DNA from: a virus
Lineage: Duplodnaviria; Caudoviricetes
Strand: one strand, 5' to 3'
Virus record (IMG/VR): IMGVR_UViG_3300046467_000865
Location: 1 to 64,000 of that record
Length of the DNA: 64,000 nt
The notes beneath the pieces are model-generated. The model had not been told where the DNA came from and made no database searches. It saw only the letters and a list, made by a program, of their open reading frames with translations. Made by a program: the position numbers and the translations under genes. Below, one piece after another: positions 38,267 through 63,421 of this stretch; the first letter of the stretch is position 1, and every line of letters starts with the position of its first letter.

Positions 38267-38289
38267 CGTCCAGATGACGTGGATGCACG

Positions 38290-38363
38290 TACCCTCGACA
38301 GGACTCGAACCTGTAACCTACGGTTTAGAAGACCGTTGCTCTATCCTGTTGAGCTACGAAGGC
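38290..38363 (-). tRNA. tRNA-Arg(UCU), CCA not encoded
   Basis: Cloverleaf GCCTTCG / GCTC-GAGC D arm / ACGGT-CTTCTAA-ACCGT anticodon arm / ACAGG-TTCGAGT-CCTGT T arm / CGAGGGT-A; 74 nt. Confidence 0.95.
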
Positions 38364-42393: not shown

Positions 42394-42402
42394 ATATTAT
42401 AC
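42394..42402 (-). promoter_or_regulatory. Putative promoter -10 element GTATAATAT
   Basis: Directly after the deaminase stop; ATG 5 nt downstream of TATAAT. Confidence 0.58.
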
Positions 42403-42403
42403 A

Positions 42404-42883
42404 CTACAAAAGACCGAAACACTCTTGAAAAAATTGTTTGTAATCGAAATCAAGATATGTGATTTCAAGGCCGTTTTCTATGAGGTGGTTGTAGACAATT
42501 TTATCTTCCTCTGTCTCCCCGTGAGCCTTAGACCCCGTTGGAACAAACCACTCCTGTATGCCGGTTTGCCAAAGCAGTTTTGCGCAATTGGCACAGGGCA
42601 GGTGAGTAATATACGTCTTGTAGGAATCAATCTGTTTTACAACTAAATTGCTTACAGCGTTAGCTTCTGCGTGTACAATGAATGGATATTTGGAAGGTCT
42701 AGTAGTGGGAAGACCGTCCTCTTTTACATTTGTACAAAACCCATTATAACCAACCCCAACAACAACGTTGGGGCTACCCACTATAACGCACCCAACCTTA
42801 GTTTGTGAGTCGTGACTTCGGATAGACACGTAATGCGCCATGCCCAAAAAATACTCATCCCAGCTTGGTCGGCTCTGCGACAC
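42404..42883 (-). CDS. dCMP deaminase family
   Basis: SWDEYF, KVGCVI, HAEANA, PCANC. Confidence 0.9.
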   Translation of the reverse strand: MSQSRPSWDEYFLGMAHYVSIRSHDSQTKVGCVIVGSPNVVVGVGYNGFCTNVKEDGLPTTRPSKYPFIVHAEANAVSNLVVKQIDSYKTYITHLPCANCAKLLWQTGIQEWFVPTGSKAHGETEEDKIVYNHLIENGLEITYLDFDYKQFFQECFGLL

Positions 42884-42965: not shown

Positions 42966-43337
42966 TTAAAACGCTCTTAAAGAGTACATAGCTCTAATAT
43001 CCTTTACTAAATCGGTGTGTCCCTGTTGTCTTATCACACACAGATCAAACTCTTCGTCTAATATTCTACCTACGTTGTCTGGCTTACACACCTTATAATT
43101 TCCTCGAAACCCCAATACTTTCGCGGCAACCGACAGCGTATTGACATCGCTTTTATTGATTTCTATGATCTTTTTAATACCATTAAAACCAAAACAGCCA
43201 TATTTATCATCAAGCTTTTTAAACAGGGCTACATCACTTAACAAAGCTTGCTTTTTTCCACCATGAAAACCAAAGTGGTTTATTATGCTATTTACTGGTT
43301 TGTCCCAGCTACCTAGCTCTACTTCTGTAGTGTGCAT
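42966..43337 (-). CDS. Hypothetical protein
   Basis: Coupled ORF. Confidence 0.5.
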   Translation of the reverse strand: MHTTEVELGSWDKPVNSIINHFGFHGGKKQALLSDVALFKKLDDKYGCFGFNGIKKIIEINKSDVNTLSVAAKVLGFRGNYKVCKPDNVGRILDEEFDLCVIRQQGHTDLVKDIRAMYSLRAF

Positions 43338-43785
43338 CTATCCTCCCAAGACCGGCGGCGTAATTAGGAATTTTAGAAGATGACATAATCGCTCCTTGAC
43401 TTTTGTCATAGATCTTAATAGTTCCATCTTCTAGTATATAAATACAATCTGCATTATGTATTGAAATCTGCTTGATATTGTCTCGATGCTGAACCAACTG
43501 ACGATACCCCTGCAAATGCCCTTGGAAGCTTAGGTTGCTTCTATAATAAACGGGCTGAGCTTGGATAGTCCATCCATGAGGAGTCCATACCCAAATCATT
43601 GGACGGGGTTGGTAAAACTGGTTGATGTATAAATGAGCAGACTGGTTGAGTCTATGTGTGTCAATGGAATGCTCAATGTTTCGGACAAAGATTTGAACAT
43701 CTGCGGCTTCTGAGCTTTCGACTCCAATAAAAGGGATGGTAGCCGCAACCAAAGCACCGATCTTTAAAAACCCTCTTCTATCCAT
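43309..43785 (-). CDS. Tat-signal secreted protein of unknown function
   Basis: MDRRGFLKIGALVAA..SEAA twin-arginine signal. Confidence 0.65.
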   Translation of the reverse strand: MDRRGFLKIGALVAATIPFIGVESSEAADVQIFVRNIEHSIDTHRLNQSAHLYINQFYQPRPMIWVWTPHGWTIQAQPVYYRSNLSFQGHLQGYRQLVQHRDNIKQISIHNADCIYILEDGTIKIYDKSQGAIMSSSKIPNYAAGLGRIDAHYRSRAR

Positions 43786-45642: not shown

Positions 45643-45816
45643 TTAAGAAGATCTTAGACTGTCCCCAACAATCCAAGCGCCGCCCAGAAGAACAATATTG
45701 TTCACCTGATCTGGGTTTAGGTCAAAACCTAAGATATTGGTGGTGGTTACAACAATACCGCCAACGGCGACCCAAAATCTTCGGGATTTAAGTAGTGGTG
45801 TGATTTTCTCTAGCAT
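45643..45816 (-). CDS. Holin-like small membrane protein (57 aa)
   Basis: Not in ORF track; MLEKITPLLKSRRFWVAVGGIVV...VNNIVLLGGAWIVGDSLRSS; GGAG SD; KSR.FW motif typical of small phage holins. Confidence 0.58.
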   Translation of the reverse strand: MLEKITPLLKSRRFWVAVGGIVVTTTNILGFDLNPDQVNNIVLLGGAWIVGDSLRSS

Positions 45817-45854
45817 TCTTCTAACTCCATAAAAAAAGTAATACGAAATCCATT

Positions 45855-46199
45855 TCAGAGAGGTCCGTCCTTAGTTAGCGTATATTCCGTATTAGGTGAC
45901 CCTGCATTTGAACAAGATGGACACATGGCAATTTTTTGGGCCTTATGCATTTCAAGTTGGTGTTGAATTTTTAAAGCTTGTTGAAGTATGACGGTGTCCC
46001 TCATGACTGCTTGCCTATTAGAATTATTAATAGCGGAGGCTAAAGCCGCAGTCTCGGTAAGCGACTTGGGAGAAGCCGACACATTCGATTTTTTAGGAAG
46101 CACTTCAAAGTAGTATACGGTCAGACCTATATTGACTATTGTGCAAACTAAAAAAGCTATAAATATGCTATTTGCGCTTGATCGCATTTTTTTCACCAC
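45855..46199 (-). CDS. Single-pass membrane protein
   Basis: IFIAFLVCTIVNIGLTVYYF TM, helical region, CPSC. Confidence 0.58.
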   Translation of the reverse strand: MVKKMRSSANSIFIAFLVCTIVNIGLTVYYFEVLPKKSNVSASPKSLTETAALASAINNSNRQAVMRDTVILQQALKIQHQLEMHKAQKIAMCPSCSNAGSPNTEYTLTKDGPL

Positions 46200-47115
46200 T
46201 TCTTAGAGGAAGCACTGGGAATTTAACAGAGTCTTTAGTGACCTTAGTACCGGGCGTAGTTTTAGACCTTGGCCCTTCTGCTGATAAGGTTTGAAGCTCT
46301 TTAATAGAGGGGACTTTAACGTCTGTGTCAATAGCCCACAAAACACCCTCTGCCTTAGCGTAGGCTCTCATTCTCCTTACGGGAACGACCAGATTAAAAG
46401 TCTCACCAGCGCCTCGCACAAGCATTCCGACATACTGACCCGCCTTTTCCTTGCTACGTTCGCTAAGGAATACTCCACCACCACTGGACCCCGGAAAAGC
46501 CGTCACTGTGGTTTGATCGAAGACTACACCATCTCCAGTCCCCAAGTCAAGAACTCTTCCAACTTGAGAGCAAATCCCTCTCGTCATCGAGTTACTGCCT
46601 ACTTGGCCTAGTAAAGAGCCGACATGATATAGCTCAGTACCAATAGCTACTGGTTTACCTGCGTTCTTGTAGAAAGTGGTGCTCTTGTCAACAAAACCTT
46701 TCTTTCTAACCATCAAGAGAGCCAAGTCTTCTCCGTTTTCAGCATCGGAGTATTTAATTACTTTGGCTTCCATCTTGAACTCGCCAACACGGCGGCCATC
46801 CTCAACCAATTCTTTAACAATTTGAGCGTCCTTGAACTCAACAATTGTTTGAGGCTTTCCATCTTTGATGACAATTCTAACCGATCTAAGGCCATCAACA
46901 ACATGCGCTGCCGTCCAGACAAAATTAACCTTCTGCTTGACGTTTGGAGAAGTTTCGACCTCCCTCGTTACAATAACACCAGAGCCTTCTCCACCCGCCG
47001 CCTTTACGGTGACGGAAACGTCTTGCAGATGTTGATAGAGTACATTGTCCTGTGCATTTGTAGTTGTAACAAACATGGATACAACTAGCGTAGCTATCCA
47101 CATAACCTTCATCAT
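46168..47115 (-). CDS. Secreted trypsin-like (S1) serine protease
   Basis: Signal peptide; TAAHV (His), EDLALL (Asp), PGSSGGG (Ser). Confidence 0.87.
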   Translation of the reverse strand: MMKVMWIATLVVSMFVTTTNAQDNVLYQHLQDVSVTVKAAGGEGSGVIVTREVETSPNVKQKVNFVWTAAHVVDGLRSVRIVIKDGKPQTIVEFKDAQIVKELVEDGRRVGEFKMEAKVIKYSDAENGEDLALLMVRKKGFVDKSTTFYKNAGKPVAIGTELYHVGSLLGQVGSNSMTRGICSQVGRVLDLGTGDGVVFDQTTVTAFPGSSGGGVFLSERSKEKAGQYVGMLVRGAGETFNLVVPVRRMRAYAKAEGVLWAIDTDVKVPSIKELQTLSAEGPRSKTTPGTKVTKDSVKFPVLPLRSGEKNAIKRK

Positions 47116-47154
47116 CAGAGTCCTTCCTTTAAGTCTTAGTATATACAGCAGCAG

Positions 47155-47946
47155 TTAGTTAACTACTTCTCCACCACCCTGCATACGCCGCTCGATTTCT
47201 CTCTGCGGGGTATTGCCGTCGTTTTCCGCAACGCCGGGAGCAACAGGAACATTAACAGTGGAAATAGATCTGAGTTCATCTTCTGTAAACTCACTACCAA
47301 GAGCAGGATGCTTGATCCATTCGATAGTGGGGATATGTGATACATCATAACCACCGAAGTGTTCTGATGTCAAGAAGAACGGAGTCGTGTTATCAAAAAC
47401 GAGTTCCGCTTCGGCGTAAGGAACCCTGAAGAGTTCTACGCACATCAGACGATATGCTTCACGGAACAGCTTTTTGATTTCGATGGCAGTAGACTCACTC
47501 CAGTCGTTTGACCAAGTGTTCTCACTAAGCTGAACAACATTGCTCATGCCCTGTAAGCAAAGCTCGATCCATCGACGGCAGTAGTCATTCTTTACATCAA
47601 AATATCTAATGGGATAGACCTTGAATGCTCTACGCTCGTGCGTAATGTGATGAGCTTCAAGACGCTCCACGTTATCTCTCTTGGTGTTCACATCAATAAG
47701 ATCGTTCAGGCGAACGAACATGTTGTGATGATGCTTTACCGCACCAAGCGTCGGAGGGCCGGGAACAAAACAGTCTGTTCTAATTGAGAACGCCTGTAGA
47801 TGCTCGCCAACCTTGTCAAACAACCTGCCTAGTGCTAGGTTGTGAGTTTCTTTGTTGTCCCCTACGTTGGGGATAGCCCACTTCACTCCCTCAAACATGT
47901 AAGGAATGATTGCATCGTGGGTGGGGGTTGCTAAAGTGTCAGACAT
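47155..47946 (-). CDS. Hypothetical protein (263 aa)
   Basis: Clean ORF with AGGAG SD; no motif recognised. Confidence 0.6.
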   Translation of the reverse strand: MSDTLATPTHDAIIPYMFEGVKWAIPNVGDNKETHNLALGRLFDKVGEHLQAFSIRTDCFVPGPPTLGAVKHHHNMFVRLNDLIDVNTKRDNVERLEAHHITHERRAFKVYPIRYFDVKNDYCRRWIELCLQGMSNVVQLSENTWSNDWSESTAIEIKKLFREAYRLMCVELFRVPYAEAELVFDNTTPFFLTSEHFGGYDVSHIPTIEWIKHPALGSEFTEDELRSISTVNVPVAPGVAENDGNTPQREIERRMQGGGEVVN

Positions 47947-47958
47947 GTTATATCTCCT

Positions 47959-49950
47959 TTACTCGATATTATATTTCTTCTTAAGTCTTTGACGCAATAA
48001 AGTGTCAATTTGAAACGCGGTCATAGTGTGGTCGTCTCCGTACTCATTGACCAATTCTCCCAGAGTGGTCATAATCTGCTCTGGGGCAATAGACTTCCTT
48101 GAACCAAAGGGTACATGTGGTAATTGTGGTGCTAATCCGGGTGACGATACTGGGCTGGTAGCCTTAAATCCGTAAGGGAGAAAATCACTTGGCATTTCAT
48201 CCACGCCTCGGCCTTTAGGGAGATCTTTTCGATCCATCACATATTCATCTTGATGTTCTTGAGGTCTCACAGGTCCACAGTCTGGAATGCCATAATGCTG
48301 ATGCTCATGTACGTGTTTGTGTACACGACCTCCACACCCGTTATCTTCTATTGGGGGTGGAGCAGGGGTTTCCCTATCAATATCATACCCATCATCGTCG
48401 TTTTCGTCATCCTCTTTTTTCTTTTTTCTTCTCCTTCTTCTGTTAAGTAAAAATGGAACTCCGTATTTAAGGGCTAGCATGCCTAAGCTGGCTCCACCAA
48501 GGGTAAAACTAACGTTTTCAACTGTATTACCATTACCACCAGTAGGCCCATCTAGATAGTGAACTCCATTTTCTGCAAGATCAGAAATTTTGTTGTCTTT
48601 ATCTTTAACAACACCTAATAGCTGATCTATTCTAGATTTAAGAGAGTCTTTCTGCCCCTCAACAGTTCCTAGTAATTCTTTTAGGCCATTAATTTCATTA
48701 TTAGCGCCTGAAAGATTCCCATTAATTCCAGACAATTCTGCCTTCAGGCTTTCGGAAAGAGCTTCAAGATTGGTTAGTTTTTCTTGAAGTTCTGTAATCT
48801 TATCAAGGTACTCCTGACGTTCTTTTGTAAAATCGATAGGTGGATCAACAGGGCCACCGGGATCTGGTCTTCCGGGCCAACCATCAAAGCCACCGCCACC
48901 GTCTGGAGGGTTTGGGTTAGAAGGTGGCAATTGAGGTGGTTGATTGGGCGGGGGACATCTATCCCAAGGACACCAAGGAAACAGACCGTTTCCTTCGTAT
49001 AGCTCGCCAACTCTGATGCCACCATAATATTTTGCCGTATCTTCAACGCTGCCATCGGTCATCTTCAGTTCAGGGCAAAACATAAACTCACCCTTGATGG
49101 TTTTCCTGAGACCTCCCTTATAGGGAATAACCACATGATCTTTAATTTTATGACCACAATGCGGACAGACTTTACTTAGTCGTTCGGCTGCGGACTTAGT
49201 GTTTATAGCCTCTTCTTCTTCGTACACTAAACTGTAAGAAGTTTCAATAGGATGCCCCTGACCATTACCCTCAATGATAGCATAAATTTGCTTTAGAGAT
49301 AAGCCAGCGCCGTAGTCATCTGGGCCATCATCTGTCCAAGCCCCGTCTCCAACTCTCCAAGCCAGCAAGATACCCAGTCTAGTGTGAGTCTCTCCCTTGT
49401 CATCTTTGATAAGAATGAGAACTCCACTACCTGATTGACCGCCAATAGGAGCGGCATTAAAACTAACAACAGCCCCCGCATTTCTCAGGACTCTACCTTT
49501 CCAAGCGCAAACCCATTGAGCAGAAGGACACCCGCCAGCCATAACGAGGTCGTTCGCCCCAATTTTCGTACCCTTGGGGGCTAGGGGAATTACTCTCGGG
49601 GGATACCGGCCAAAATATTTCTTTTTTACTGAGACTATGGCTAAGTCAAGAGCAGTACCCTCTTCGTAAGCTACGTATTCGGTTTTAAAAGGAATCATTG
49701 CGGATTTGTAGCCGTCTTGGAAAAATTCCAAGTGGCCTCTTTTGGCTCTTCCAATTACGTGACCGTTGGTCAGTACGTAGTAGTTTTCTTTATCTTCTTG
49801 AAATACAGTTCCGCTGCCTCTGGCTCCGTTGGTATTCACTCTACATACTGCGTCTAATGCTTGGTCAATAGTTAGAGCTTGTGCCGAGGCTGGCTGGCTA
49901 CTTAGAATCAACGCTAAGAAAAGCGTAACTGCGCATAGAAATTTATTCAT
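47959..49950 (-). CDS. Secreted, membrane-anchored S1 serine protease with Pro-rich linker and coiled coil
   Basis: Signal MNKFLCAVTLFLALILSSQPASA; TNGHV, LDLAIV, GQSGSG triad; PPPNQPP linker; heptads; TM followed by RRRRRKKKK; start moved to ATG 49950. Confidence 0.82.
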   Translation of the reverse strand: MNKFLCAVTLFLALILSSQPASAQALTIDQALDAVCRVNTNGARGSGTVFQEDKENYYVLTNGHVIGRAKRGHLEFFQDGYKSAMIPFKTEYVAYEEGTALDLAIVSVKKKYFGRYPPRVIPLAPKGTKIGANDLVMAGGCPSAQWVCAWKGRVLRNAGAVVSFNAAPIGGQSGSGVLILIKDDKGETHTRLGILLAWRVGDGAWTDDGPDDYGAGLSLKQIYAIIEGNGQGHPIETSYSLVYEEEEAINTKSAAERLSKVCPHCGHKIKDHVVIPYKGGLRKTIKGEFMFCPELKMTDGSVEDTAKYYGGIRVGELYEGNGLFPWCPWDRCPPPNQPPQLPPSNPNPPDGGGGFDGWPGRPDPGGPVDPPIDFTKERQEYLDKITELQEKLTNLEALSESLKAELSGINGNLSGANNEINGLKELLGTVEGQKDSLKSRIDQLLGVVKDKDNKISDLAENGVHYLDGPTGGNGNTVENVSFTLGGASLGMLALKYGVPFLLNRRRRRKKKKEDDENDDDGYDIDRETPAPPPIEDNGCGGRVHKHVHEHQHYGIPDCGPVRPQEHQDEYVMDRKDLPKGRGVDEMPSDFLPYGFKATSPVSSPGLAPQLPHVPFGSRKSIAPEQIMTTLGELVNEYGDDHTMTAFQIDTLLRQRLKKKYNIE

Positions 49951-49961
49951 TGTTGCGTTCC

Positions 49962-50048
49962 TCAATCGCTCTTGACCTTCGTCATAGCGCCTAAAATTAT
50001 CAGTGAAATTGCAAATCCTAAGATAATGATTCCTAAATCCTGTAGCAT
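49962..50048 (-). CDS. 28-aa single-TM micropeptide
   Basis: ATG immediately after the TAG of the upstream gene; MLQDLGIIILGFAISLIILGAMTKVKSD. Confidence 0.5.
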   Translation of the reverse strand: MLQDLGIIILGFAISLIILGAMTKVKSD

Positions 50049-50636
50049 CTACCAATCCTTTTGGATGGTAAACTTATATTCGAAAAGACATGACCTTGCT
50101 AGGTCCGCAGGTGTTACCGCGCTGTCAGCTAGGTACGGAACAGGATCTAAATAAGCCTGCCTGTAAGCATAAACAACGGCTGTGCTGCAAACGAATACGT
50201 TTGTCGGATCGTTGTCTTTTGTATTTTGCTCTGCTAATCTGCAAAACGGCAAGTAGTGTTTTCCTATTTTCCAGAAGTTTGTCCAGCCGTATGGCAAGCC
50301 AGTAATACTCCCCATGACATCCGTTATTTCGTTGCGAACATCTTTTGTGAGTTTGTAGCCCTTGCCATCAAATTCAATGTAATCAGCCGCTTTGAATACA
50401 TCAATGTTATTAGGATGTGTTTCAACCTGAGATTTCATGGAGACGGCTCTTCCGCCTTGAAATTCTCTAAATTCCACACACTGTAGATCATTATCATCCC
50501 AATGCGCCATTCCAGCATGGCTGTGAACTCCGCTGCCATAACGTTTAATAAGCCAAGAAATTAGTCCCTCGCCGCGAAACAGTAAAACATCTGCCTCTTC
50601 GATTTGGGATACTGCTTCGCGGTAAGGGACTAACAT
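50049..50636 (-). CDS. Permuted papain-like NlpC/P60 amidase (YiiX/YebB-like)
   Basis: ADVLLFRG, HSHAGM (His) precedes FVCSTAV (Cys); VTPADL. Confidence 0.75.
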   Translation of the reverse strand: MLVPYREAVSQIEEADVLLFRGEGLISWLIKRYGSGVHSHAGMAHWDDNDLQCVEFREFQGGRAVSMKSQVETHPNNIDVFKAADYIEFDGKGYKLTKDVRNEITDVMGSITGLPYGWTNFWKIGKHYLPFCRLAEQNTKDNDPTNVFVCSTAVVYAYRQAYLDPVPYLADSAVTPADLARSCLFEYKFTIQKDW

Positions 50637-50639
50637 AAT

Positions 50640-50960
50640 TTATTCACTCTCTAATTTTTTTTCTATTCTATCTAATATATCAGCGATCCTTCTCTGATCA
50701 TTAACGATTTGTGTCATGATGTGCTGCATTTCCTTTTGGGTTTCCGCCCAACTTCTCGGGACATAAACCAAAGGAGTGCCGTCAGCATCCTGTCTAGATA
50801 TCACCTTGTAGGTGTGTTGCATCCAATTTCTTTCGTCGTCCATCAAAGCGGACTTTGTGGGAACAGACTTTAAAATGAGAACCTCAATAACCTTCCCCAA
50901 ACCCAAGACTACTGCGACGACCGCCGCCAAAGCAGGAATTGAAAAGATGTCTGATTCCAT
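50640..50960 (-). CDS. Membrane protein with C-terminal coiled coil
   Basis: IPALAAVVAVVLGLGKVIEVLIL TM; helical C-terminus; GGAGG SD. Confidence 0.58.
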   Translation of the reverse strand: MESDIFSIPALAAVVAVVLGLGKVIEVLILKSVPTKSALMDDERNWMQHTYKVISRQDADGTPLVYVPRSWAETQKEMQHIMTQIVNDQRRIADILDRIEKKLESE

Positions 50961-51033: not shown

Positions 51034-51603
51034 TTAGCCACCAGTCTTGGCAGGATAATCCTTGTTGTTGTTCGTAAACGTAACAAAGTCTTCCAGAATG
51101 GTGAATTCGCCGGGAACTGCACGGGTAGGCGTGGCAGCGTGATCGGCGTTGAACGAAACATTGTCGCCAGCGTTACCGCCATCGGTTGCAATACCGGTGG
51201 CATAAGCAATACTGGTGATATGAATACGCTCGGTTTCAGATAGGTCATGAATAGCAACGCGCTCTGGCACTTCGCTTCCGGGGAAGGTCAGTAGTGTTGA
51301 AGCAACATTGTTAATCTTCGAAGCATAGCCACGAATCAAGAACTGAGGATCGTTGGCCTTGGGCTGGTAGGCTATGGCGCCGGAACCCTTGGAGGTTGTA
51401 ATACCGGGAACCCATTTACTGCCAGTAAGAGCCACTACCTTGGCTCCGTAGCCTACGTCGGGAGTCTCTGAGACCGCAAGATCGCTAACCTGAAGTGTTC
51501 TCGTTACGGCAGAACCTTTCGTGGTGGTAGTCTGAGACGTAACGCCTAGAACGGTTCCACCATTGTTCTTTGTGCCTGTACCTGATACTGTAGTTGTAGC
51601 CAT
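51034..51603 (-). CDS. Probable abundant virion/structural protein (189 aa, Thr/Gly/Ala-rich)
   Basis: Own promoter and terminator; composition; CGY Arg codons and C-ending codons. Confidence 0.5.
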   Translation of the reverse strand: MATTTVSGTGTKNNGGTVLGVTSQTTTTKGSAVTRTLQVSDLAVSETPDVGYGAKVVALTGSKWVPGITTSKGSGAIAYQPKANDPQFLIRGYASKINNVASTLLTFPGSEVPERVAIHDLSETERIHITSIAYATGIATDGGNAGDNVSFNADHAATPTRAVPGEFTILEDFVTFTNNNKDYPAKTGG

Positions 51604-51668: not shown

Positions 51669-51677
51669 ATATTATAC
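51669..51677 (-). promoter_or_regulatory. Putative promoter -10 element GTATAATAT
   Basis: Intergenic, ~65 nt upstream of the 51603 ATG. Confidence 0.62.
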
Positions 51678-51693
51678 ACCAATTTCGACAATG

Positions 51694-55368: not shown

Positions 55369-56431
55369 TAATGATCTCCTTTGCTGTATTGTTCCAAGAA
55401 AATTTTTCGGCTGTTTTTATACATTCTTTGTTAGCAAGGAGGTCACCCCTTTGCTTGGCTCTGTGTATAGCATTCATGTAGAAAGCTATCTCTTTAACCT
55501 GTTTGTCTCCAACTTTAGCCCATTGTCCTTGACCAAAGAACCACTTTTCGTCAACTGCATCTTCTTTTTCATCCGTGTATATAAGCATAGAATTATCTTT
55601 GGTGCAAAATTCAGTATGGCCAGAATAGTTGGTGGCAATAACGTGTTTGCCGCAAGACATCAGTTCTAACAATTCTAGGTTCCAACCTTCTGCTCTAGAC
55701 GGAAAAACACCACAGTCTACTTGTCTCATTATATTATACACATCTTTTTGACTGCTTTGCCTAGGAATTATTCTAATCTTGTTGCCCATGGGGGAGTTTT
55801 TGTACAGATCTTCCCAATATTTATTTTCCTCGTCTGAGTAAAAAGGATTGTTGCACATCATCCACAACTCAACGTCGTCCTCAGTAGAAAAAGCCCTGTT
55901 AAAAGCTTCGACTAGAATATCGTGACCTTTTCTGACTTCCCATTTTCCACAGTTAAAAAACACGGTCTCAGATCTAGAAGACACATCCGTTCTAAATATA
56001 TCTCTATCTACGCCTAGGGGGGCTACAGAGACTGGTGGACAATTAGGCAACGAGTTTAGGCAGACTTCTTTTGCCCATTCGGAGCAGACAAGTATCTTAT
56101 CCAAGCTGCTCAGGTGGTGGGATTCTACGGTTGTGAATTTGTCTAGCTCAAAAATAGGGAACCCGATCTTTTTACCCCTGCCCACAAACTGGCTCATATC
56201 ATGTTGATGCCAGATCCGTAGACAAGGTGCGTTAAAATCAGGCAATTCAGACCTTCTGACACACTCTTTGATTTGTTCTACATGGACGTTGTCAATCTCC
56301 GGTTGTCCTATGGGCCACAGCGAAACTTCCAACAGCTTATTTAGTTCTAGAACTATATTTAGACCCGCAACGCCGTAACCCAGTTGGTTTAGAGGTGATA
56401 TTATGTTAATAGCTTTATCTTGCTTCATCAT
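55352..56431 (-). CDS. GT4 glycosyltransferase
   Basis: GYGVAG, APLGVD, GKWEVRKG, PSRAEGWNLELLELMSCG. Confidence 0.85.
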   Translation of the reverse strand: MMKQDKAINIISPLNQLGYGVAGLNIVLELNKLLEVSLWPIGQPEIDNVHVEQIKECVRRSELPDFNAPCLRIWHQHDMSQFVGRGKKIGFPIFELDKFTTVESHHLSSLDKILVCSEWAKEVCLNSLPNCPPVSVAPLGVDRDIFRTDVSSRSETVFFNCGKWEVRKGHDILVEAFNRAFSTEDDVELWMMCNNPFYSDEENKYWEDLYKNSPMGNKIRIIPRQSSQKDVYNIMRQVDCGVFPSRAEGWNLELLELMSCGKHVIATNYSGHTEFCTKDNSMLIYTDEKEDAVDEKWFFGQGQWAKVGDKQVKEIAFYMNAIHRAKQRGDLLANKECIKTAEKFSWNNTAKEIINAVST

Positions 56432-56639
56432 CCATAGACTTCCGTATAAAATCCCAATCTATATTATTAACTATGGCTTGGGTGCAAGAACCCATGAAAG
56501 GATGAGCATTTTTAGATTCTACAGCTAGTAAGCCAGCGTGTTTTTTAAGCTGTTCCAAATTGTAACTCGTATTAATTTTAGCCTCTTCGCAATAATCTTC
56601 AAATATTCGGGTGGCCATATTAGGATACGCCTTCATCAA
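56415..56639 (-). CDS. Hypothetical protein (74 aa)
   Basis: Coupled ORF. Confidence 0.48.
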   Translation of the reverse strand: MMKAYPNMATRIFEDYCEEAKINTSYNLEQLKKHAGLLAVESKNAHPFMGSCTQAIVNNIDWDFIRKSMDDEAR

Positions 56640-57582
56640 ATGACCTCCTTATTATGTTTTTCCAATAAGATAATTTAGACTTGTCAAGATTAAATTCCAA
56701 TTTTTCAAGTTCTTTATGACGTTCTTTCAGAAACTCTAGACTCAACTGACCCCAGTCTTGTATCGTCAATATCGGAAGACCTGACAAGTATTTAACCATT
56801 GGGCAATCAATAACTATGGGTATTGAACCCAAGTAAATAGATTCTAGTATTCGATAACAATCAAGACCATTTCCAAAAGGACACGCCACAAAAACGTGAC
56901 TCGCCAAGTCTTTAAAATAATCGAGTGTGTCTCTTTCAGGTTTTGTGTAATATGTAACCCAGTCAAAATCATTGCGCTCAAAGTAATTTTTTAAGTGCAT
57001 TCTTTCGTTTGTGTAGTTTTGCCAATTTATATATAGCCAATTTTTTCTATCTTCGAAAGAGACTAAGTCAGTGTTGAATATATCGTTTGTAGAAGCAGTC
57101 CCGACGCCTATCGGTATGCCCTGAATTTTATTTTGTATTACTTGAGGATTTACAACAAACCATTTAATGATATTATCTGGTATCTTGTCGAATGTGGCGT
57201 TCGTAAAAGAATACATTTTTACAGAGTAGACATCATCTATGTTGCAATTCTCTATATTACATCTTGGGCCAATCTTTAGAGATTGGTATCCAATTTTTAA
57301 TATCTCTTCTTCCAAAAACGGCAACCATTTTAGCATATCGTTCGCAACCGGGTGCTCTTTTTGGTACGCCGGTCCAGAATCACTGAAGCCGCTGACTACT
57401 ACATATTTATTATCGGTTAATTTACACTTGTCGAAAAACTTTGTTATGTGTTCTATATTACAATACACCACACCAGAAGGTGGTATTTGTCCTTCTTCTG
57501 GGTAGTCGTACTCATAATTGCAATCTCCTATACTCATCCAAGACTTACAATTAATTATGTCTAATTTATCTATCAGGGACAT
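56620..57582 (-). CDS. Exostosin/GT47-like glycosyltransferase
   Basis: LYINW..TNER, FVACPFGNGLDCYRILES.YLGSIPIV. Confidence 0.68.
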   Translation of the reverse strand: MSLIDKLDIINCKSWMSIGDCNYEYDYPEEGQIPPSGVVYCNIEHITKFFDKCKLTDNKYVVVSGFSDSGPAYQKEHPVANDMLKWLPFLEEEILKIGYQSLKIGPRCNIENCNIDDVYSVKMYSFTNATFDKIPDNIIKWFVVNPQVIQNKIQGIPIGVGTASTNDIFNTDLVSFEDRKNWLYINWQNYTNERMHLKNYFERNDFDWVTYYTKPERDTLDYFKDLASHVFVACPFGNGLDCYRILESIYLGSIPIVIDCPMVKYLSGLPILTIQDWGQLSLEFLKERHKELEKLEFNLDKSKLSYWKNIIRRSFDEGVS

Positions 57583-59086
57583 CTATTCCTACCCCTCCAA
57601 ACAGTGTCATTGTATCCATACAAAAGACAGGTCTCTCTGTTCTTTTATATATCTCGGCGGCTTGTGCGTGTTCGCTTTCTACAAAAAGGGCCGCTTCTGG
57701 ACATCGGTAATAAGCTTCCGCTTTCCATTTGCCAAAACCTTCGTTGGAGAGTCTTTCTTCTACGGAGTCGTATGGACTCATGATTAGCTGCTTATATTTA
57801 ATCTTGTGTAGAGCCAACCAGTCCTCGGTAATATCTCTATATTTTTCAAGTCTAGCGGTTACAATTTTCATCAATGGGTATTGAGGAACGTAAACCGTTG
57901 GCTCAACTGTTTTCAAATGCTCTACATAGTCTGCGCTGCCATCTACTATAGTCCCGTCAAAGTCTGGGCAGAGAACTCCGTCTAGATCGCAAAGGTATGC
58001 CCCGCACTGAGGGTCTCTCAGAAAGCTCCATTCCCACGAATGGTAGATTGTCGGCAAAATCCCGTAGAAAAAATCTACATCATCTTTTCTATCTTCGTTG
58101 ATATACATCAACCCGTAAACAAACTTTCCCTTGTTTTTGAGATATGATTTAGTTCTCTTAAGAGAGGAGCCACTCCAGCAAGTATCATCAACGACGAGTA
58201 TCGGGCCAGTGGGTTTATATATCGGTCTAGATATACTTGGCCTCCAACAGAAGTTGTTGTGTAGAATTCCGTCTACGGTGACAAGTGGTATGTTGCGATA
58301 TTCAGAAATAATAGACGCTATAAAAGATCCGCTTCGTGGTATGCCACAAACAGCACTTACTTCTGGAATATCTTTACACCAGTCTTTTATATCCTTGATC
58401 ACACCTGCATAAGACTTGTATACGAATTGATGAGTGCCATCGTCAAAAGGGGCTTTAAAATTAAGATCAATCAATTCATTGACTGGCCTTGTTTCGTCCA
58501 CAGACCTGCAAATAAATTGAGCATGATTCTCACTTGGGTATTTTGATTTTGCAAATTGATATATATTACAATCTTCCATTACTATTTCGAAGTTAGGATC
58601 ATCTTGTATTATTTTAGCAACATTTTCGTGTTCAGGACCATCAATATAACATCTAGTTGTTATATATAACGTAGAAGTAATTTTTCGCATGTCTTCAAGA
58701 AACTTCTTAACTGCTTCTGCACTGTCCATAGTCTGAAACACGAATGAAGCGATGACCATGTCGTATTTATTTTGTTGAATTGTAGACCAATCACTCGTTA
58801 ACAAATCAATGTCTTCTTTACACAATTCTTCACATCTACCCACAATGGATTCCAAGTCATAGCCATGAAGCTCTGTGCTGAATCCTTTGAAATACTTGAA
58901 GTGTCTACCAATGCCGCATCCAAAATCTAGTATTTTGTATTTTCTACCTTTGACATCGATTAAATCTAACGGGGTGTGGGGTAGAGCCTCTGCCTCTCCG
59001 TGTCCGGTCAGAATACACTCTTTTAACTCTACGTCGTTGGTGTCTAGGCCTACTTGCTCCCACCGTTCGTTATTAAGATAATCCAT
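57566..59086 (-). CDS. Methyltransferase - phosphoribosyltransferase - HAD triple fusion
   Basis: ILDFGCGIGR (MTase); GIPRSG and ILVVDDTCWSGSS (PRTase PRPP loop); LCDLDGVL and IVTAR (HAD). Confidence 0.72.
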   Translation of the reverse strand: MDYLNNERWEQVGLDTNDVELKECILTGHGEAEALPHTPLDLIDVKGRKYKILDFGCGIGRHFKYFKGFSTELHGYDLESIVGRCEELCKEDIDLLTSDWSTIQQNKYDMVIASFVFQTMDSAEAVKKFLEDMRKITSTLYITTRCYIDGPEHENVAKIIQDDPNFEIVMEDCNIYQFAKSKYPSENHAQFICRSVDETRPVNELIDLNFKAPFDDGTHQFVYKSYAGVIKDIKDWCKDIPEVSAVCGIPRSGSFIASIISEYRNIPLVTVDGILHNNFCWRPSISRPIYKPTGPILVVDDTCWSGSSLKRTKSYLKNKGKFVYGLMYINEDRKDDVDFFYGILPTIYHSWEWSFLRDPQCGAYLCDLDGVLCPDFDGTIVDGSADYVEHLKTVEPTVYVPQYPLMKIVTARLEKYRDITEDWLALHKIKYKQLIMSPYDSVEERLSNEGFGKWKAEAYYRCPEAALFVESEHAQAAEIYKRTERPVFCMDTMTLFGGVGIDVPDR

Positions 59087-59408
59087 TTTTTCTTTTCATC
59101 TCGTTTTGAACATATATACAGGGTGAACCATCACATATTTCGTGTATCTTTTCATTCAGAATATGTTTTCTCAAGTCCTTAATTCTCGCACCGTCCCATA
59201 TTTCTTCTAGATCATTATCGTGTAGGTTGCCCAAAGACCCCGTACTCCAGCAACACGGTCTCACCTCTCCGTCAGCTAGTACCTGTACGGTATGCCAAGG
59301 GTATCTGCAATCTTTATAGATTAAATCTTCCTCTACCTTATCTGATTTCACGGGTTGCGATTTGTCCAAATTCGTATCCGATGAAATCCCATTCTCTTTC
59401 TTGTGCAT
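59073..59408 (-). CDS. Stand-alone SPASM/twitch Fe-S domain
   Basis: CRYPW..V.ADGEVRPCC...GNL...LEEIWDG...C..SPC. Confidence 0.75.
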   Translation of the reverse strand: MHKKENGISSDTNLDKSQPVKSDKVEEDLIYKDCRYPWHTVQVLADGEVRPCCWSTGSLGNLHDNDLEEIWDGARIKDLRKHILNEKIHEICDGSPCIYVQNEMKRKNGLS

Positions 59409-60105
59409 ATACTTTAGCTTCTCTTATTTTTTGATTATAAGTGAACTCATAATCCCACAAACCCTGCTCTTCATAAATAAAAGTCCAATCTCCATAATCT
59501 CTGTTGTAATGCTGATTGGCTTCTCCCCAATTGTTCATGGGCCATACTTTTACTGTGTCACATCCAAGCTTCCCGATAGTCAAATCCATGAAGTCTATTA
59601 TCTGATGAATATTTTCTTTCATAAGCGTCATGTTGGTGTAGACCACTGGGTATTTTTGTTTCCTAGATTTTTTTTGATCTACGAAGTTGGCTAAATTGTT
59701 CAGGACAGTATCAAAATCATACATTCTTATCTTTTTATACGTCTCTTTGTCGGCTGCGTCTAAAGAAACATTCAATACTTTCAAGTTTGAATTCAGGAGA
59801 TCGTCAATCATCTGATCCGTTAAGATTGTTAGGTTTGTGTTGACATCGGCCCAGCAATTTTTGGGTATGTGTTGGAGAAGTTTCCAGAAAGAGGAACTTA
59901 TCAAAGGCTCTCCTATTCCATGAAGCTGGACAGCTTGCAGGGTCTTCATCATAGGAATAATTTTGTCTATTAAATCGTCTTCTAGAAACTTAGGTCTTTT
60001 TACAGCGTGTTCATTGTCGCGCGGCAAAGACTGTGGGCACATCACACATTTGAGATTGCATTTAGAAGCCGTCTCTATTATCATGTTAATGGGAAGATTA
60101 GACAT
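59338..60105 (-). CDS. Radical SAM enzyme
   Basis: CNLKCVMC, LHGIGEPL, NTN, NVSLDAA..ETYKKIR. Confidence 0.9.
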   Translation of the reverse strand: MSNLPINMIIETASKCNLKCVMCPQSLPRDNEHAVKRPKFLEDDLIDKIIPMMKTLQAVQLHGIGEPLISSSFWKLLQHIPKNCWADVNTNLTILTDQMIDDLLNSNLKVLNVSLDAADKETYKKIRMYDFDTVLNNLANFVDQKKSRKQKYPVVYTNMTLMKENIHQIIDFMDLTIGKLGCDTVKVWPMNNWGEANQHYNRDYGDWTFIYEEQGLWDYEFTYNQKIREAKVYAQEREWDFIGYEFGQIATREIR

Positions 60106-60109
60106 CGGT

Positions 60110-60991
60110 TTAAATCATAGTATAGTGAACGTTAGAATACAGGGCTATCTGGCTGGGGTTTAGATAAATATCGTCTATTCCAACATCCAACATCCTGCTG
60201 TGTAACTCTACATGGTCACAGTCTGGGCCTGAATATCTAGCGTCATGCCGAAAAGCAGAGTGCTTATACAATGCTAACCCCCCAAAGCATGACAGAACTC
60301 TAAAGGGTTCTTCACCCCTGTTGTAGGTCAAGGCGTTTATCTCAGAACTTACGTGTTGTTCGGGGTGGCCTATTCTTCTAAAGGCAAGCGAATCATAATA
60401 AACCCTAATCATGGAGGGGCTTCCATCTTCGTCTTTCAGAGATGGCGACAGTCCATATAAAAGCCCATTAGATCCCATTGCGCTCCAGTTGTCATACCCA
60501 AAGCTGTTGCATATTCCTTCGTAGCTCCACCCCCCTTTTAGATCTAAATCAGCCACTATAATATAGTCTGAGGATACAGATCTGCTAAATATTTCTGCTA
60601 AATATTTATTTCTATAGTTTGCTAGCGCAACTAACCTGTCGACATCCGTGCTTGACTTATGTTTTTTATCCCCTAGTTTTTCACTCAAGATTTTCACATT
60701 GTAATTTTTGTCTTCCCACTGTCTCAATAATATATCGGTATTATCAGTTGAATCATTCTCATATATAACAACCCTATAATCATCAAACATCTTGCCCAAA
60801 CGCTCAATTCTGGCTATGTTCGCCATAATATTTTTAGATATATCTCTAGCTATACCACAAATTACAACGGTAGACTCGCTCATCTTCTGTCTACCTAGTA
60901 TTACCTTTGCGTTGTATTCCTCTTGATTCTCCTGACTACATGGATACAGGGATTCTGGAAATTTAGATATATACCACTTAAGTGCATTCAT
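60110..60991 (-). CDS. GT-A glycosyltransferase (CAP59/GT69-like)
   Basis: CGIARD, YENDSTD, LANYRNKYL, DLD, SCFGGLALY. Confidence 0.65.
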   Translation of the reverse strand: MNALKWYISKFPESLYPCSQENQEEYNAKVILGRQKMSESTVVICGIARDISKNIMANIARIERLGKMFDDYRVVIYENDSTDNTDILLRQWEDKNYNVKILSEKLGDKKHKSSTDVDRLVALANYRNKYLAEIFSRSVSSDYIIVADLDLKGGWSYEGICNSFGYDNWSAMGSNGLLYGLSPSLKDEDGSPSMIRVYYDSLAFRRIGHPEQHVSSEINALTYNRGEEPFRVLSCFGGLALYKHSAFRHDARYSGPDCDHVELHSRMLDVGIDDIYLNPSQIALYSNVHYTMI

Positions 60992-61311
60992 ACGCTAAAG
61001 CTCGTTCCACATCCGCAACCTCCAGTTGCATTTGGGTTGTCAAACTTAAACCCCCTCTTCATAATATCTTCAATCCAGTCAACTGTGCAGCCGTCAATAA
61101 ATGGCTCACCCTTTTTATCTACGACAAACGAAACCTCTTTTTGTTTGTATTTAGAAAAAGTATCATCAACTTCTTCTTCTTCAATGAAGCCCATCTTGTA
61201 TTCAAAGCCGCTGCACCCACCACCCGCAACGCCTATACGTAAAACTGCGGTTGGATGACCTTCACCAAACTCTTGAACTTTTTCTAACGCCGCGTCTGTA
61301 AATGTTATCAT
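60988..61311 (-). CDS. HesB/IscA Fe-S cluster assembly accessory protein
   Basis: ITFTDAA, GGGCSG.EY, F.NPNA.GGCGCGTSF. Confidence 0.93.
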   Translation of the reverse strand: MITFTDAALEKVQEFGEGHPTAVLRIGVAGGGCSGFEYKMGFIEEEEVDDTFSKYKQKEVSFVVDKKGEPFIDGCTVDWIEDIMKRGFKFDNPNATGGCGCGTSFSV

Positions 61312-62549
61312 AGAATAATCCTTGCCTTCTCGTCAATGAAATATCTGGGACGACCGGCAAAGTCGGTCTTTTGAATTTGTGGATCAATACCAAAATGGTT
61401 GAATAGAGTAGCTGTTACATCCATCGGCCCGAAGGCTTCTGTCTTAGGTCTTTCGGCGTTAGGCGTTGACTCACCAATCGCCCTACCCATATCAAAATCA
61501 CCACCTGAGAGCATGAGAGGGCTTAATTGGGGCCAGTGATCTCGCCCACCATTTTTATTAATACGATAAGTACGACCAAACTCGCCGGTAACAACAAGCA
61601 ATACATCCTTCTGCATCCCCTTGGCGTGAAGGTCGTCTATAAGAGTGGACAAGGCGTGGTCAAGCGGCGGAACCTTGTTATGCAAAGACTTTGAGATGTT
61701 ACTGTGCATATCCCAACCGCCATAATGTAGCGTAACAAACTTAGTGCCGTTTTCAACCAACCTTCTGGCCAATAGCAGTTGAGAGCCTATTCCGGCCTCT
61801 CCGTAACTATTGCGAGTCGCTTCTGGTTCGTTCTTCAGGTCAAACGCTTCGCTAGCCTTTCCTAAGATTAAACTGTACGATTGCTTTCTTAGGTCTCCCC
61901 AAGTTTCAAGATCGTTTGTTAGCTTGAGCCTGTCAAAGCTACCGACTAAATCTTTACGCTCAACAAACCGGCCACCTTCGATCCGCGCCTTAAGGTTGTC
62001 AACACCTTCTCCTTTGGCCTCGTAGGGCTTGTGCTGACCTCCTAGCCACGCTGGACCGTCGAAGCTGATCCCGTTGATCCTGACGTAGCTTGGCATCCCT
62101 GAGAGGGGATGGTTTGGCCCATACAGGGAAGACAGAACAGAGCCGTAAGACGGTTCTTCCTGCATGGATTGTGGAGTGTTGTCAGTTGAATTATGCCCTG
62201 TCATAACCCAGTGCGTGCCGGTTCTATGACTAGCATTTCTGTGAGTAAACGATCTGACTACAGAAATCTTATCTGACCTAGTGGCCAACCTTAGAAAATC
62301 CCCACCTATGAGGAAGTCTCCGTTAGTCATTATAGAACCGTTTATAGCTTTGATGCCTTCTGGAGCCATAGGCTTCGGATCGAAGGTCTCAACTTGTGTT
62401 GCGCCGCCACCCAGCCAGACCCAGATGACAGACTTATCGTTAACAGGCATTGAGTCTGCGTGGGCGTCTGATAGCCCCATAGAAGAAAGCCCAGCACCCA
62501 CTGCGCCAATCTTCATGAAGTCTCTTCTATTGAATTGAACGTGTAGCAT
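61308..62549 (-). CDS. DUF1501 (sulfatase-like, Planctomycete-type) protein with Tat-like signal
   Basis: RRDFMK signal; WLGGG..QVETFDPKP; CLLARRLVE-like QLLLARRLVE; GWDMH; GEFGRT; GRDHW; start at ATG 62549 with AAGGAG SD. Confidence 0.88.
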   Translation of the reverse strand: MLHVQFNRRDFMKIGAVGAGLSSMGLSDAHADSMPVNDKSVIWVWLGGGATQVETFDPKPMAPEGIKAINGSIMTNGDFLIGGDFLRLATRSDKISVVRSFTHRNASHRTGTHWVMTGHNSTDNTPQSMQEEPSYGSVLSSLYGPNHPLSGMPSYVRINGISFDGPAWLGGQHKPYEAKGEGVDNLKARIEGGRFVERKDLVGSFDRLKLTNDLETWGDLRKQSYSLILGKASEAFDLKNEPEATRNSYGEAGIGSQLLLARRLVENGTKFVTLHYGGWDMHSNISKSLHNKVPPLDHALSTLIDDLHAKGMQKDVLLVVTGEFGRTYRINKNGGRDHWPQLSPLMLSGGDFDMGRAIGESTPNAERPKTEAFGPMDVTATLFNHFGIDPQIQKTDFAGRPRYFIDEKARIIL

Positions 62550-62629
62550 TGTTGTTCTCCTTTTCACTCGGTCTCAGAAATGATCAGACTACGAGTATTA
62601 CAAGCGGGAAAGTTTTGAAAAGACAAGTC

Positions 62630-62869: not shown

Positions 62870-62878
62870 ATATTATAC
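62870..62878 (-). promoter_or_regulatory. Putative promoter -10 element GTATAATAT
   Basis: Contains the TAA stop of the upstream gene. Confidence 0.58.
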
Positions 62879-63421
62879 TCCGTATACCTTGTTAAAGTCG
62901 AAAAATCTCCACCTATTGTAGTGTTCAACTACTGAGTTGTGATTTACATGATATAGATAGTCCATTAGCTGAAACCAGTTAGCAAATACCATCTCATGTG
63001 GAAGAACTCCGAACATCCAGTTCGGCAGTTTTTCTTTCCCCCCCACACACCTTATTAACACTGGCTTTTTCTGTCCTAGGGCTACAAACATTTCGTGGTA
63101 CGACCCACACATATGAATGTCTAAATCAAGATTGACAATAAGGAAATGCGCTATGTCAACCATTCTAAGGTCAACAGCGCATATTGGTTTCATTATATTC
63201 GATACAGAATCAAAGTTTCCCGCCTCCTTATAGGAATCAATCTTTTGTCTAGTGTTGTCGTCTTCCGTTGCATAGTTACTTGGCTTATCGCATGGGTCTA
63301 ACACCCCTACCCCAAGGTCTTTTAATTGCGGGGTTATGTCCTGCCTCCACTTAATACCACCGTCACTAACCCTGTCCATTGGGCCACACAAATAACACGT
63401 CATTCCTTTAAGCCTGTTCAT
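62873..63421 (-). CDS. Nucleoside 2-deoxyribosyltransferase-like protein
   Basis: CYLCGPM, WRQDI, VLDP, DLRMVD, GS.HEM; start moved to ATG 63421 (GGAGGTG SD) downstream of the terminator. Confidence 0.68.
   Translation of the reverse strand: MNRLKGMTCYLCGPMDRVSDGGIKWRQDITPQLKDLGVGVLDPCDKPSNYATEDDNTRQKIDSYKEAGNFDSVSNIMKPICAVDLRMVDIAHFLIVNLDLDIHMCGSYHEMFVALGQKKPVLIRCVGGKEKLPNWMFGVLPHEMVFANWFQLMDYLYHVNHNSVVEHYNRWRFFDFNKVYGV

Follow-up and report, generated by a model that had tools for sequence, protein, structure and literature searches.

Introduction

The gene block treated here consists of eight open reading frames (ORFs) at positions 45643-50960 (minus strand) of a 64,000-nucleotide stretch of virus DNA, taken from positions 1 to 64,000 of the IMG/VR record IMGVR_UViG_3300046467_000865 (Duplodnaviria; Caudoviricetes) and hereafter called the window. 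Its closest described counterparts are phage lysis cassettes and phage enzymes that are exported to the host envelope. In the lambda cassette, composed of the S holin, the R endolysin and the Rz/Rz1 spanin, membrane proteins and hydrolases are encoded co-directionally in a fixed slot in which the type of enzyme is swapped, and some leaderless enzymes lie beside small membrane proteins. The block, whose part in lysis is putative, shares these traits, but a muralytic enzyme and a lipoprotein partner are missing from it, none of its proteins matches a holin or spanin family, and its main enzymes are serine proteases with Sec signals.

Lys44 of the Oenococcus phage fOg44, which carries a signal peptide, and the signal-anchor (SAR) endolysins of P1 and phage 21 are exported muramidases acting on murein. 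Lytic enzymes exported by a signal peptide or a signal anchor can be restrained until the membrane is depolarised. The likeness to the block lies in Sec export to the envelope, ahead of what may be a lysis step, and in a membrane tether as a possible means of control, whereas the enzymes of the block are trypsin-fold proteases and its anchor is a C-terminal transmembrane (TM) helix behind a long stalk. Mycobacteriophage LysB is a serine esterase that acts on mycolyl-arabinogalactan and works beside the endolysin LysA. It resembles the block as a phage hydrolase against a host-specific, non-murein layer; the block differs in that no endolysin was found in relatives and in its chemistry, which would concern peptide bonds and perhaps lipids. 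The block can securely be described as a conserved, widespread, envelope-directed module that is centred on exported proteases and occupies a mosaic slot.

Organization of the gene block

The window is DNA of a large phage, with genes for a split DnaE-type polymerase, a DnaB helicase, a ribonucleotide reductase (RNR), glycosyltransferases and a sigma-like factor, and the minus strand carries all of its genes. In the ORF list of the window the block comprises eight co-directional ORFs, and the coordinates and minus strand underlying the first-pass annotation's description of a single eight-gene block were borne out for every one of them. In the order of transcription, with lengths in amino acids (aa), they are:

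50640-50960, minus strand: tm106, 106 aa, one N-terminal TM helix followed by a helical C-terminal part that resembles a coiled coil; the module begins with this gene

50049-50636, minus strand: yiix195, 195 aa, YiiX/YaeF-type permuted NlpC/P60 protein (papain fold), from profile and fold match

49962-50048, minus strand: tm28, ORF of a 28-aa hydrophobic TM peptide, beginning directly after the yiix195 stop

47959-49950, minus strand: prot663, 663 aa, membrane-anchored exported serine protease, from Trypsin_2 match and alignment

47155-47946, minus strand: unk263, 263 aa, cytoplasmic-looking member of a family without known match, from its AlphaFold2 (AF2) fold and conservation

46168-47115, minus strand: prot315, 315 aa, secreted serine protease, from signal peptide and Trypsin_2 match

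45855-46199, minus strand: tm114, 114 aa, protein with a single TM helix, a CPSC motif and an N-terminus of basic character, from ORF list and hydrophobicity

45643-45816, minus strand: tm57, 57 aa, two hydrophobic segments, from alignment

Neighbouring genes overlap or are 0-40 nt apart, with an overlap of 32 nt between tm114 and the 3' end of prot315. The single exception is the 98-nt spacing between yiix195 and prot663, which is filled by tm28.

Exported serine proteases

Sequence comparison establishes prot315 and prot663 as distantly related, predicted exported serine proteases, one of them soluble and the other tethered to the cytoplasmic membrane through a Cys-rich, Pro-rich and coiled-coil stalk. 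Both match the Pfam family Trypsin_2 (PF13365), at 42.4 bits for prot315 and 36.9 bits for prot663 against a gathering score of 27.6 bits, and a six-frame search recovers exactly two Trypsin_2 matches in each related record. The two proteins are 22% identical and align across the catalytic triad. The intact His/Asp/Ser residues that had been read from the single sequences are invariant in homologues as well, as H71/D130/S211 in 20 homologues of prot315 (alignment A1) and as H64/D102/S173 in 21 homologues of prot663 (alignment A5).

The leader of prot315 is basic (Lys/Arg-rich), then hydrophobic, and ends in a small-x-small motif in 40 of 40 distinct homologues, and it is assigned as a signal peptide because this character is constant while the leader sequence varies. 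Signal peptides and one TM anchor had been proposed from the start, and these leaders, together with a conserved TM helix in prot663, agree with that proposal. The signal peptide of prot315 is followed by the Trypsin_2 domain and by a C-terminal extension with a conserved FP-x-L motif, and mean column identity in alignment A1 is 70%. In public metagenomes prot315 has 2954 homologues at E ≤0.001; Tara Oceans data account for many of them, and the contigs that carry them reach 162 kb.

The ORF of prot663 extends upstream to a TTG at 50055, and the true start is the ATG of MNKFLC. From there the protein runs through a signal peptide, the Trypsin_2 domain, a Cys-rich domain, a linker rich in Pro, some 90 aa of coiled coil and a TM helix (about residues 481-502). 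A polybasic Arg/Lys run and a His-rich linker of variable sequence come next, and the C-terminal stretch, roughly 45 aa long, is conserved. Conservation is 0.8-0.95 in the protease domain, 0.92 in the TM helix, 0.37 in the His-rich linker and 0.7-0.86 in the C-terminal stretch. This order of parts therefore predicts the topology of a type I membrane protein, in which the protease faces outwards and the conserved tail lies inside. At about residues 505-560 (window 48250-48560) the cytoplasmic tail shows the Arg/Lys run and then a His-rich stretch of the HxHxHxH type, which varies in sequence yet persists in relatives and may bind metal.

HtrA, DegP and DegS are comparable to the block proteases in their Trypsin_2 fold, in export to the envelope and, in the case of DegS, in membrane anchoring. 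However, a Pfam scan at E ≤0.1 found no PDZ family in either protease, NCBIfam similarities to HtrA/DegP families reach 16-31 bits against cut-offs of 335-650, and the C-terminal anchor is followed by a cytoplasmic tail; since the PDZ domain is lacking, prot315 and prot663 are not counted as members of the HtrA family. The A1 profile of prot315 has no relative in the PDB at E ≤0.001. Identity as a prohead protease was considered for prot315 and rejected: the sole PHROG match of a protease or prohead kind, to phrog_9683 ('protease'), is marginal (E 0.0098), and the signal peptide is conserved in 40 homologues, although the gene does adjoin that of a head protein in L074, L076 and L085, which this rejection leaves unexplained.

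Conservation of the core and exchange of genes in the slot

The five-gene core tm106-yiix195-prot663-unk263-prot315 was found in the same order in about 30 loci with enough flank among 80 IMG/VR loci retrieved via prot315. Because loci chosen through prot315 would make the comparison circular, a second sample of 80 loci was drawn via the RNR gene, which lies 4 kb downstream of the block. The full core was present in every RNR-anchored locus with an RNR identity of at least 81% and enough flank, so that conservation of the block, when checked in relatives, held for the core as a unit in close relatives from both samples. The phage group has a genome of about 150 kb and at least 580 contigs in IMG/VR. 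Among cultured phages, blastn and tblastn searches of 50,697 phage records gave no match to the block, prot315, yiix195 or unk263.

Clades with RNR identities of 73-78% have the same slot, situated after the genes for the sigma-like factor and up189 and before those for dCMP deaminase and RNR. The gene preceding the slot is a context feature outside the block:

51034-51603, minus strand: up189, G/T/S-rich protein of 189 aa that invariably precedes the slot

Homologues of up189 (26-89% identity) precede the slot in all lineages, and Pfam and PHROG scans of the protein gave no match. One variant of the slot in these clades contains tm106, an M10 matrixin with a twin-arginine translocation (Tat) leader, an M19 dipeptidase and tm57, to which prot315 is added in some cases; others contain only M19 and tm57, or have M10 further upstream of tm57. 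The matrixin (E 2e-31) and the dipeptidase (E 7.5e-50) of the sister-lineage slot occupy it in lineages that have neither prot663 nor unk263. A further, L176-type variant has none of these genes and encodes a protein of 188-194 aa with an N-terminal TM helix, a 70-88-aa protein with two TM segments, a protein of about 300 aa without a Pfam, PHROG or PDB match, and a membrane-anchored thioredoxin.

Several exported or redox-related products were seen in and near the slot. The leaders of the M10 peptidases are twin-arginine-like, with RRK or SRRN (L064 1324-3652; L134 1680-2327), and the M19 dipeptidase has no leader. Thioredoxin-fold genes recur in the slot (L176 8608-9342; L064 5258-5563; L141 5853-6212), one of them with an N-terminal membrane anchor, and these thioredoxins may aid disulfide formation in Cys-rich exported phage proteins. 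At 43309-43785 (minus strand) the window itself encodes d158, an exported 158-aa protein that begins MDRRGFLKIGALVAATIPF, has a Tat-type leader and belongs to no Pfam or PHROG family.

In its behaviour prot315 resembles a mobile accessory gene, because it is also found alone in unrelated phage contexts. In L085 (5464-7965), L074 and L076, a homologue of 62-65% identity with a signal peptide lies between a major head gene (phrog_2522, a weak match) and a Gp80 head-fibre gene (PF23140, E 1e-27). In L028 (8884-11267) prot315 lies between RecA/UvsX-like and HNH homing-endonuclease-like genes, and the HNH neighbour may explain the movement of the prot315 gene between phages. On a 5.5-kb phage fragment in a Vicinamibacteraceae genome bin (L095 3512-5515), prot315 is directly followed by a DUF1501 homologue that is 44% identical to the product of window positions 61308-62567.

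YiiX-like enzyme

The profile of yiix195 matches the Bacillus cereus YiiX-like protein of PDB entry 3kw0 at E 1.5e-5, and the single sequence does so at E 0.0024. Although the AF2 model of yiix195 is of moderate quality (pLDDT 69), a Foldseek search with it returned 3kw0 at E 2.6e-5 (probability 1.0, TM-score 0.57) and E. coli YiiX (2if6) with a probability of 0.99. Residues H38, H40, H45 and C150 are invariant in 20 sequences, and H40 aligns with the His of the SHTG motif of 3kw0, so that the His precedes the Cys, which is the permuted order; His40 and Cys150 are the probable catalytic residues. The protein matches phrog_1128 (E 1.3e-10), has no signal peptide, and gave no Pfam or NCBIfam family at E ≤0.1, including PF05708 (MEROPS C92).

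The permuted NlpC/P60 group, comprising YiiX, LRAT and the type VI secretion effector Tox-Act1, has been linked to lipids and not to murein, and YiiX was crystallised with a fatty acid (PMC12994826, PMC7387801). By analogy yiix195 is probably a lipid-cutting enzyme. It resembles YiiX/YaeF-like, LRAT-like and Tox-Act1 enzymes in the permuted order, the invariant His/Cys pair and the structural match to 3kw0 and 2if6, but differs in that it matches no Pfam model and that its family is specific to marine phages. Of the first-pass description as a YiiX-like permuted NlpC/P60 amidase, the fold is retained through the matches to 3kw0 and 2if6 and the term amidase is not, given the literature that ties the group to lipids.

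The conserved protein unk263

Among the genes of the block, unk263 is the best conserved, at 79-98% identity among relatives. Its family is small, with 65 clusters among 1.84 billion representatives, and no Pfam domain was found in 42 members. The AF2 model (pLDDT 85, pTM 0.81) shows a helical bundle with a hairpin. Foldseek searches of PDB and BFVD returned no match for this fold at E ≤0.001, and the best hits of a wide VIA fold search (Z 5.4) were to generic helical bundles; the unk263 profile gave only noise against PDB sequences, and the ESM atlas held no usable match. Complex prediction of unk263 with the cytoplasmic tail of prot663 gave a score of 0.00, which carries no verdict. Distant relatives occur in phage contexts, one of them two genes after a Peptidase_MA_2 gene and another in a prophage-like locus, where Gam-like and terminase genes lie immediately downstream of it. 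Of the three genome bins with prot315, none contains the unk263 family.

Small membrane proteins

The hydrophobic segment of tm106 spans residues 11-29. The protein is 57-88% identical in 33 loci, where its gene stands directly before that of yiix195 or, in L064 and L141, before that of the M10 peptidase. tm28 was detected by tblastn in six loci of the nearest clade, to which it is confined, and is absent from the relative G001, where the gap is 6 nt. tm114 is confined to the nearest clades (35-72% identity). In both tm106 and tm114 an N-terminal TM helix is followed by a helical tail, and no ORF with a lipobox was noticed when the ORF list was read.

The most widespread element of the slot is tm57, which stands beside prot315 or M19 in many lineages and whose motifs SRRF and WIVGDS-R are invariant (alignment A4). 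Neither tm57 nor 19 homologues match a Pfam holin family, tm57 has no PHROG or NCBIfam match, and a protein atlas gave a weak link to Phage_holin_1 (score 0.86). Holins are too diverse for an absent family match to exclude a holin. The membrane segments ascribed to the small proteins at the outset are upheld, while the label holin-like for the 57-aa protein describes its topology and finds no counterpart in a holin family.

Search for endolysins in relatives

Endolysin families were sought by six-frame searches of syntenic relatives, the window being covered through the proteins of the block, among which Pfam, PHROG and NCBIfam revealed no muralytic family. In G001 (119 kb, 79% complete) and three other relatives, Phage_lysozyme, Amidase_2, SLT, M15_4, NLPC_P60, M23, GH25, M15_3, Amidase_3 and CHAP were not found; GH19 and GH108 gave no match there either, which is uninformative, as they also gave none in 14 control genomes. 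Phage_lysozyme (PF00959), Amidase_2 (PF01510) and SLT (PF01464) are likewise absent from G629 (IMGVR_UViG_3300025816_000006; 162,690 bp, 98% complete), G630 (90% complete) and the 152.7-kb contig C7. Beyond the 98%- and 90%-complete relatives, eight further records lack the same three families, and the sole signal was one Amidase_2 match below threshold. As a positive control for the six-frame method, two Trypsin_2 genes were recovered in each record. These searches support the view that the relatives encode no canonical endolysin; the corresponding first-pass statement is thus upheld in relatives up to 98% complete, within the families and relatives covered.

Host

Two contigs of the phage group are found in the SAR202 genome bin (metagenome-assembled genome) OSU_TB57, binning being weak evidence of a host. 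The first, of 64 kb, carries prot315 and tm57, and the second (G027:C7, L180-L187; 152,655 bp) is as long as an entire phage genome and has 32 genes in common with the window; the other contigs of the bin share the G+C content of the phage, at 39-42%. On G027:C7, three tandem DUF1501 paralogues were seen at 55826-60283, with opposite-strand ORFs of 4411, 2178 and 1674 aa. SAR202 bacteria lack peptidoglycan and lipopolysaccharide synthesis and have walls of the S-layer type (PMC10444878, PMC11994032). A peptidoglycan-free SAR202 host would explain the missing endolysin better than a planctomycete host. No paper on SAR202 phages was found in a literature search.

A planctomycete host had been proposed in the first-pass annotation. 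A DUF1501 gene with a Tat signal is the one feature behind that proposal, and the SAR202 bin of matching G+C points elsewhere. The prot315 family occurs in 1 of 301 Planctomycetota genomes. This one case is a 313-aa homologue of prot315 (49% identity, signal peptide) at L097 9917-10858, on a 188-kb contig of 61% G+C in a soil Planctomycetia genome bin, in a phage-like neighbourhood where helicase-like and metallophosphoesterase-like genes flank it; the locus probably belongs to a prophage or to a phage that was binned wrongly. Two points weaken the planctomycete idea: the phage has a G+C of 41% compared to 61% in the Planctomycetia contig, and the prot315 family is rare in that group.

Function of the module

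Seen as a whole, the block would be a phage module for proteolysis outside the cytoplasm, placed in a fixed mosaic slot of a marine phage group. Where the first-pass annotation had suggested a protease-based lysis or remodelling system or an exclusion system, targeting to the envelope and conservation were borne out, and the lysis part found no backing in a holin or spanin match. Its likeliest use, put forward tentatively, is nonetheless to breach a protein-rich, non-murein layer of the envelope at release (lysis/egress). The stalk of prot663 would hold its protease at the outer wall layer, soluble prot315 would attack the same layer, and yiix195, like other permuted NlpC/P60 enzymes, would act on membrane lipid after gaining access, while tm57 and perhaps tm106 would serve as holin-like gates. 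The proteases would take the place of the absent endolysin, the host wall being mostly protein; this would hold if the host is a peptidoglycan-free bacterium of the SAR202 type.

A release role fits the conservation of the five-gene core, the interleaving of hydrolases with small membrane proteins in one co-directional run and, by comparison with lysis cassettes, the swapping of enzyme classes in a single slot that tm106 and tm57 delimit. It also fits because leaderless enzymes adjoin membrane proteins, muralytic enzymes are missing and the host is possibly wall-less.

Several observations weigh against release. No element of the block matches a holin, spanin or endolysin family in Pfam, PHROG or NCBIfam, and small TM ORFs also occur outside the slot, as a clustering check revealed. 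Export by Sec or Tat offers no obvious control of timing, and the M19 dipeptidase, having no signal peptide, fits metabolism better than wall breaking. The slot adjoins genes of nucleotide metabolism and carries accessory genes for GDP-fucose synthase (fcl), thioredoxin and Tat-signal proteins, and solitary copies of prot315, 62-76% identical, occur in phages that otherwise have no gene in common with the window. With regard to the missing endolysin, the near-complete genomes were searched for three families only, their lineages lack the serine-protease core, and lysins that are new or divergent escape family searches. With regard to the host, DUF1501 is found in 176 of 301 Planctomycetota genomes (best identity 44%) and in 2 of 301 Chloroflexota genomes, and the idea of a SAR202 host is weakened because the family is nearly absent from Chloroflexota; planctomycetes, for their part, possess peptidoglycan. 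A literature search found no paper on lysis by secreted proteases.

The same genes could instead remodel the envelope without lysis, with the proteases trimming surface or periplasmic proteins during infection and the membrane proteins and unk263 positioning or regulating them; the target would be the phage's own receptor, which would result in superinfection exclusion and spare progeny from adsorbing to debris, or host envelope functions. This is rather unlikely, although a serious candidate. Signal peptides and the tether would place the enzymes at the envelope once they are made, the island carries other exported proteins, such as the Tat-signal protein d158, DUF1501 and thioredoxins, and the 70% mean column identity of prot315 suggests one conserved host target. 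The self-sufficiency of prot315 and its horizontal mobility across unrelated contexts are moron-like, but a core that no close relative lacks and enzyme classes that are exchanged in one slot resemble an essential step more than optional exclusion. Furthermore, such remodelling leaves the cytoplasmic YiiX-like and M19 enzymes unexplained, and a literature search found no protease-based phage exclusion system.

Viral auxiliary metabolic peptidases have been reported in metagenome surveys, and the block would be comparable to them in that they lie in variable islands of environmental phages and that prot315 is mobile between lineages. Along these lines, the exported or tethered S1 and M10 peptidases would cut periplasmic or external protein and the cytoplasmic M19 would finish its digestion, feeding amino-acid catabolism and nucleotide synthesis during a long latency in the deep ocean. 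The pairing of a Tat-exported M10 with a leaderless M19 in the sister-lineage slot speaks for such a supply, as does the position of the slot, a hypervariable island beside the dCMP deaminase and RNR genes with metabolic genes such as fcl, and cell-tethered exoenzymes are suited to dilute environments. However, the block differs from the surveyed peptidases in holding several peptidases in a conserved multi-gene unit with membrane proteins and unk263, and bulk digestion needs neither a stalk nor a conserved tail, unk263 or small membrane proteins. No peptide transporter was seen in the block, a YiiX-type enzyme fits badly, and auxiliary metabolic genes mostly occur sporadically, unlike the core, which does not vary within the clade. 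Peptide or amino-acid supply is therefore also to be taken seriously, while lying on the improbable side.

Quality control by HtrA/DegS-like housekeeping proteases, which would keep the envelope working amid many exported phage proteins, is very improbable: the phage does encode many exported Cys-rich proteins and thioredoxins and the NCBIfam similarity to HtrA/DegP families exists, but it is weak (31 bits for HtrA against a cut-off of 650), and neither the missing PDZ domain nor the A1 profile without a PDB relative agrees with it.

Release through a protein-rich layer can also be put in a more specific form. In this form the phages would infect SAR202 (Dehalococcoidia), the slot would be a lysis cassette, and the proteases, the lipid-acting yiix195 and the holin-like tm57 would together dismantle an S-layer glycoprotein wall, with lineages varying the peptidase; as a complete proposal this is distinctly unlikely.

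Promoter motif, transcripts and other features

One further feature lies upstream of the block:

51670-51682, minus strand: promoter-like motif TTGGTGTATAATA, between the genes for the sigma-like factor and up189, with one mismatch to the TGTATAAT-type motif

Transcription of the block possibly starts at this motif. The TGTATAAT-type motif has five matches in the window compared to 1.8 expected, and its support is weak and not significant by itself for that reason. Scanning 42-54 kb for promoters and terminators yielded nothing usefully above shuffled sequences. Two-mismatch copies of the GTGTATAATA type were seen at 42395-42407 and 62871-62883 (both minus strand), upstream of other minus-strand genes.

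Contigs of two metatranscriptome libraries of seawater, each belonging to a different study, align to parts of the block with no mismatch, and one piece of 780 nt spans tm57, tm114 and the end of prot315. These contigs indicate presence only, DNA carry-over being possible; gaps in their cover are uninformative, and the genes cannot be ranked by them.

Elsewhere in the window, a single tRNA-Arg gene with anticodon TCT is located at 38289-38363 (minus strand). In G001 (L007 80-11737), a 3885-aa ORF at the start and further plus-strand ORFs of 1246 and 585 aa were seen. This region of giant genes has no PHROG match and yielded no structural names, and its ORFs presumably encode undescribed types of virion or tail protein. 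A search of G001 and G003-G005 for Terminase_6N gave no match.

Implications

Whatever the purpose of the block, unk263 represents a conserved family whose confidently predicted fold has no known counterpart. A link to SAR202, which is possible, also deserves testing. Were the slot indeed a SAR202 lysis cassette, it would be the first protease-built lysis system of a tailed phage and would offer the first genomic handle on SAR202 phages. More generally, a release system of this kind would show how tailed phages exit from protein-walled hosts, which is relevant to wall-less bacteria and archaea, and would be a source of proteases specific for protein walls. If the block instead serves exclusion or scavenging, it would represent a new class of phage-encoded protease function outside the cytoplasm. 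With about 3,000 homologues of prot315 and at least 580 contigs of the phage group, the module is a common yet undescribed feature of deep-ocean viruses.

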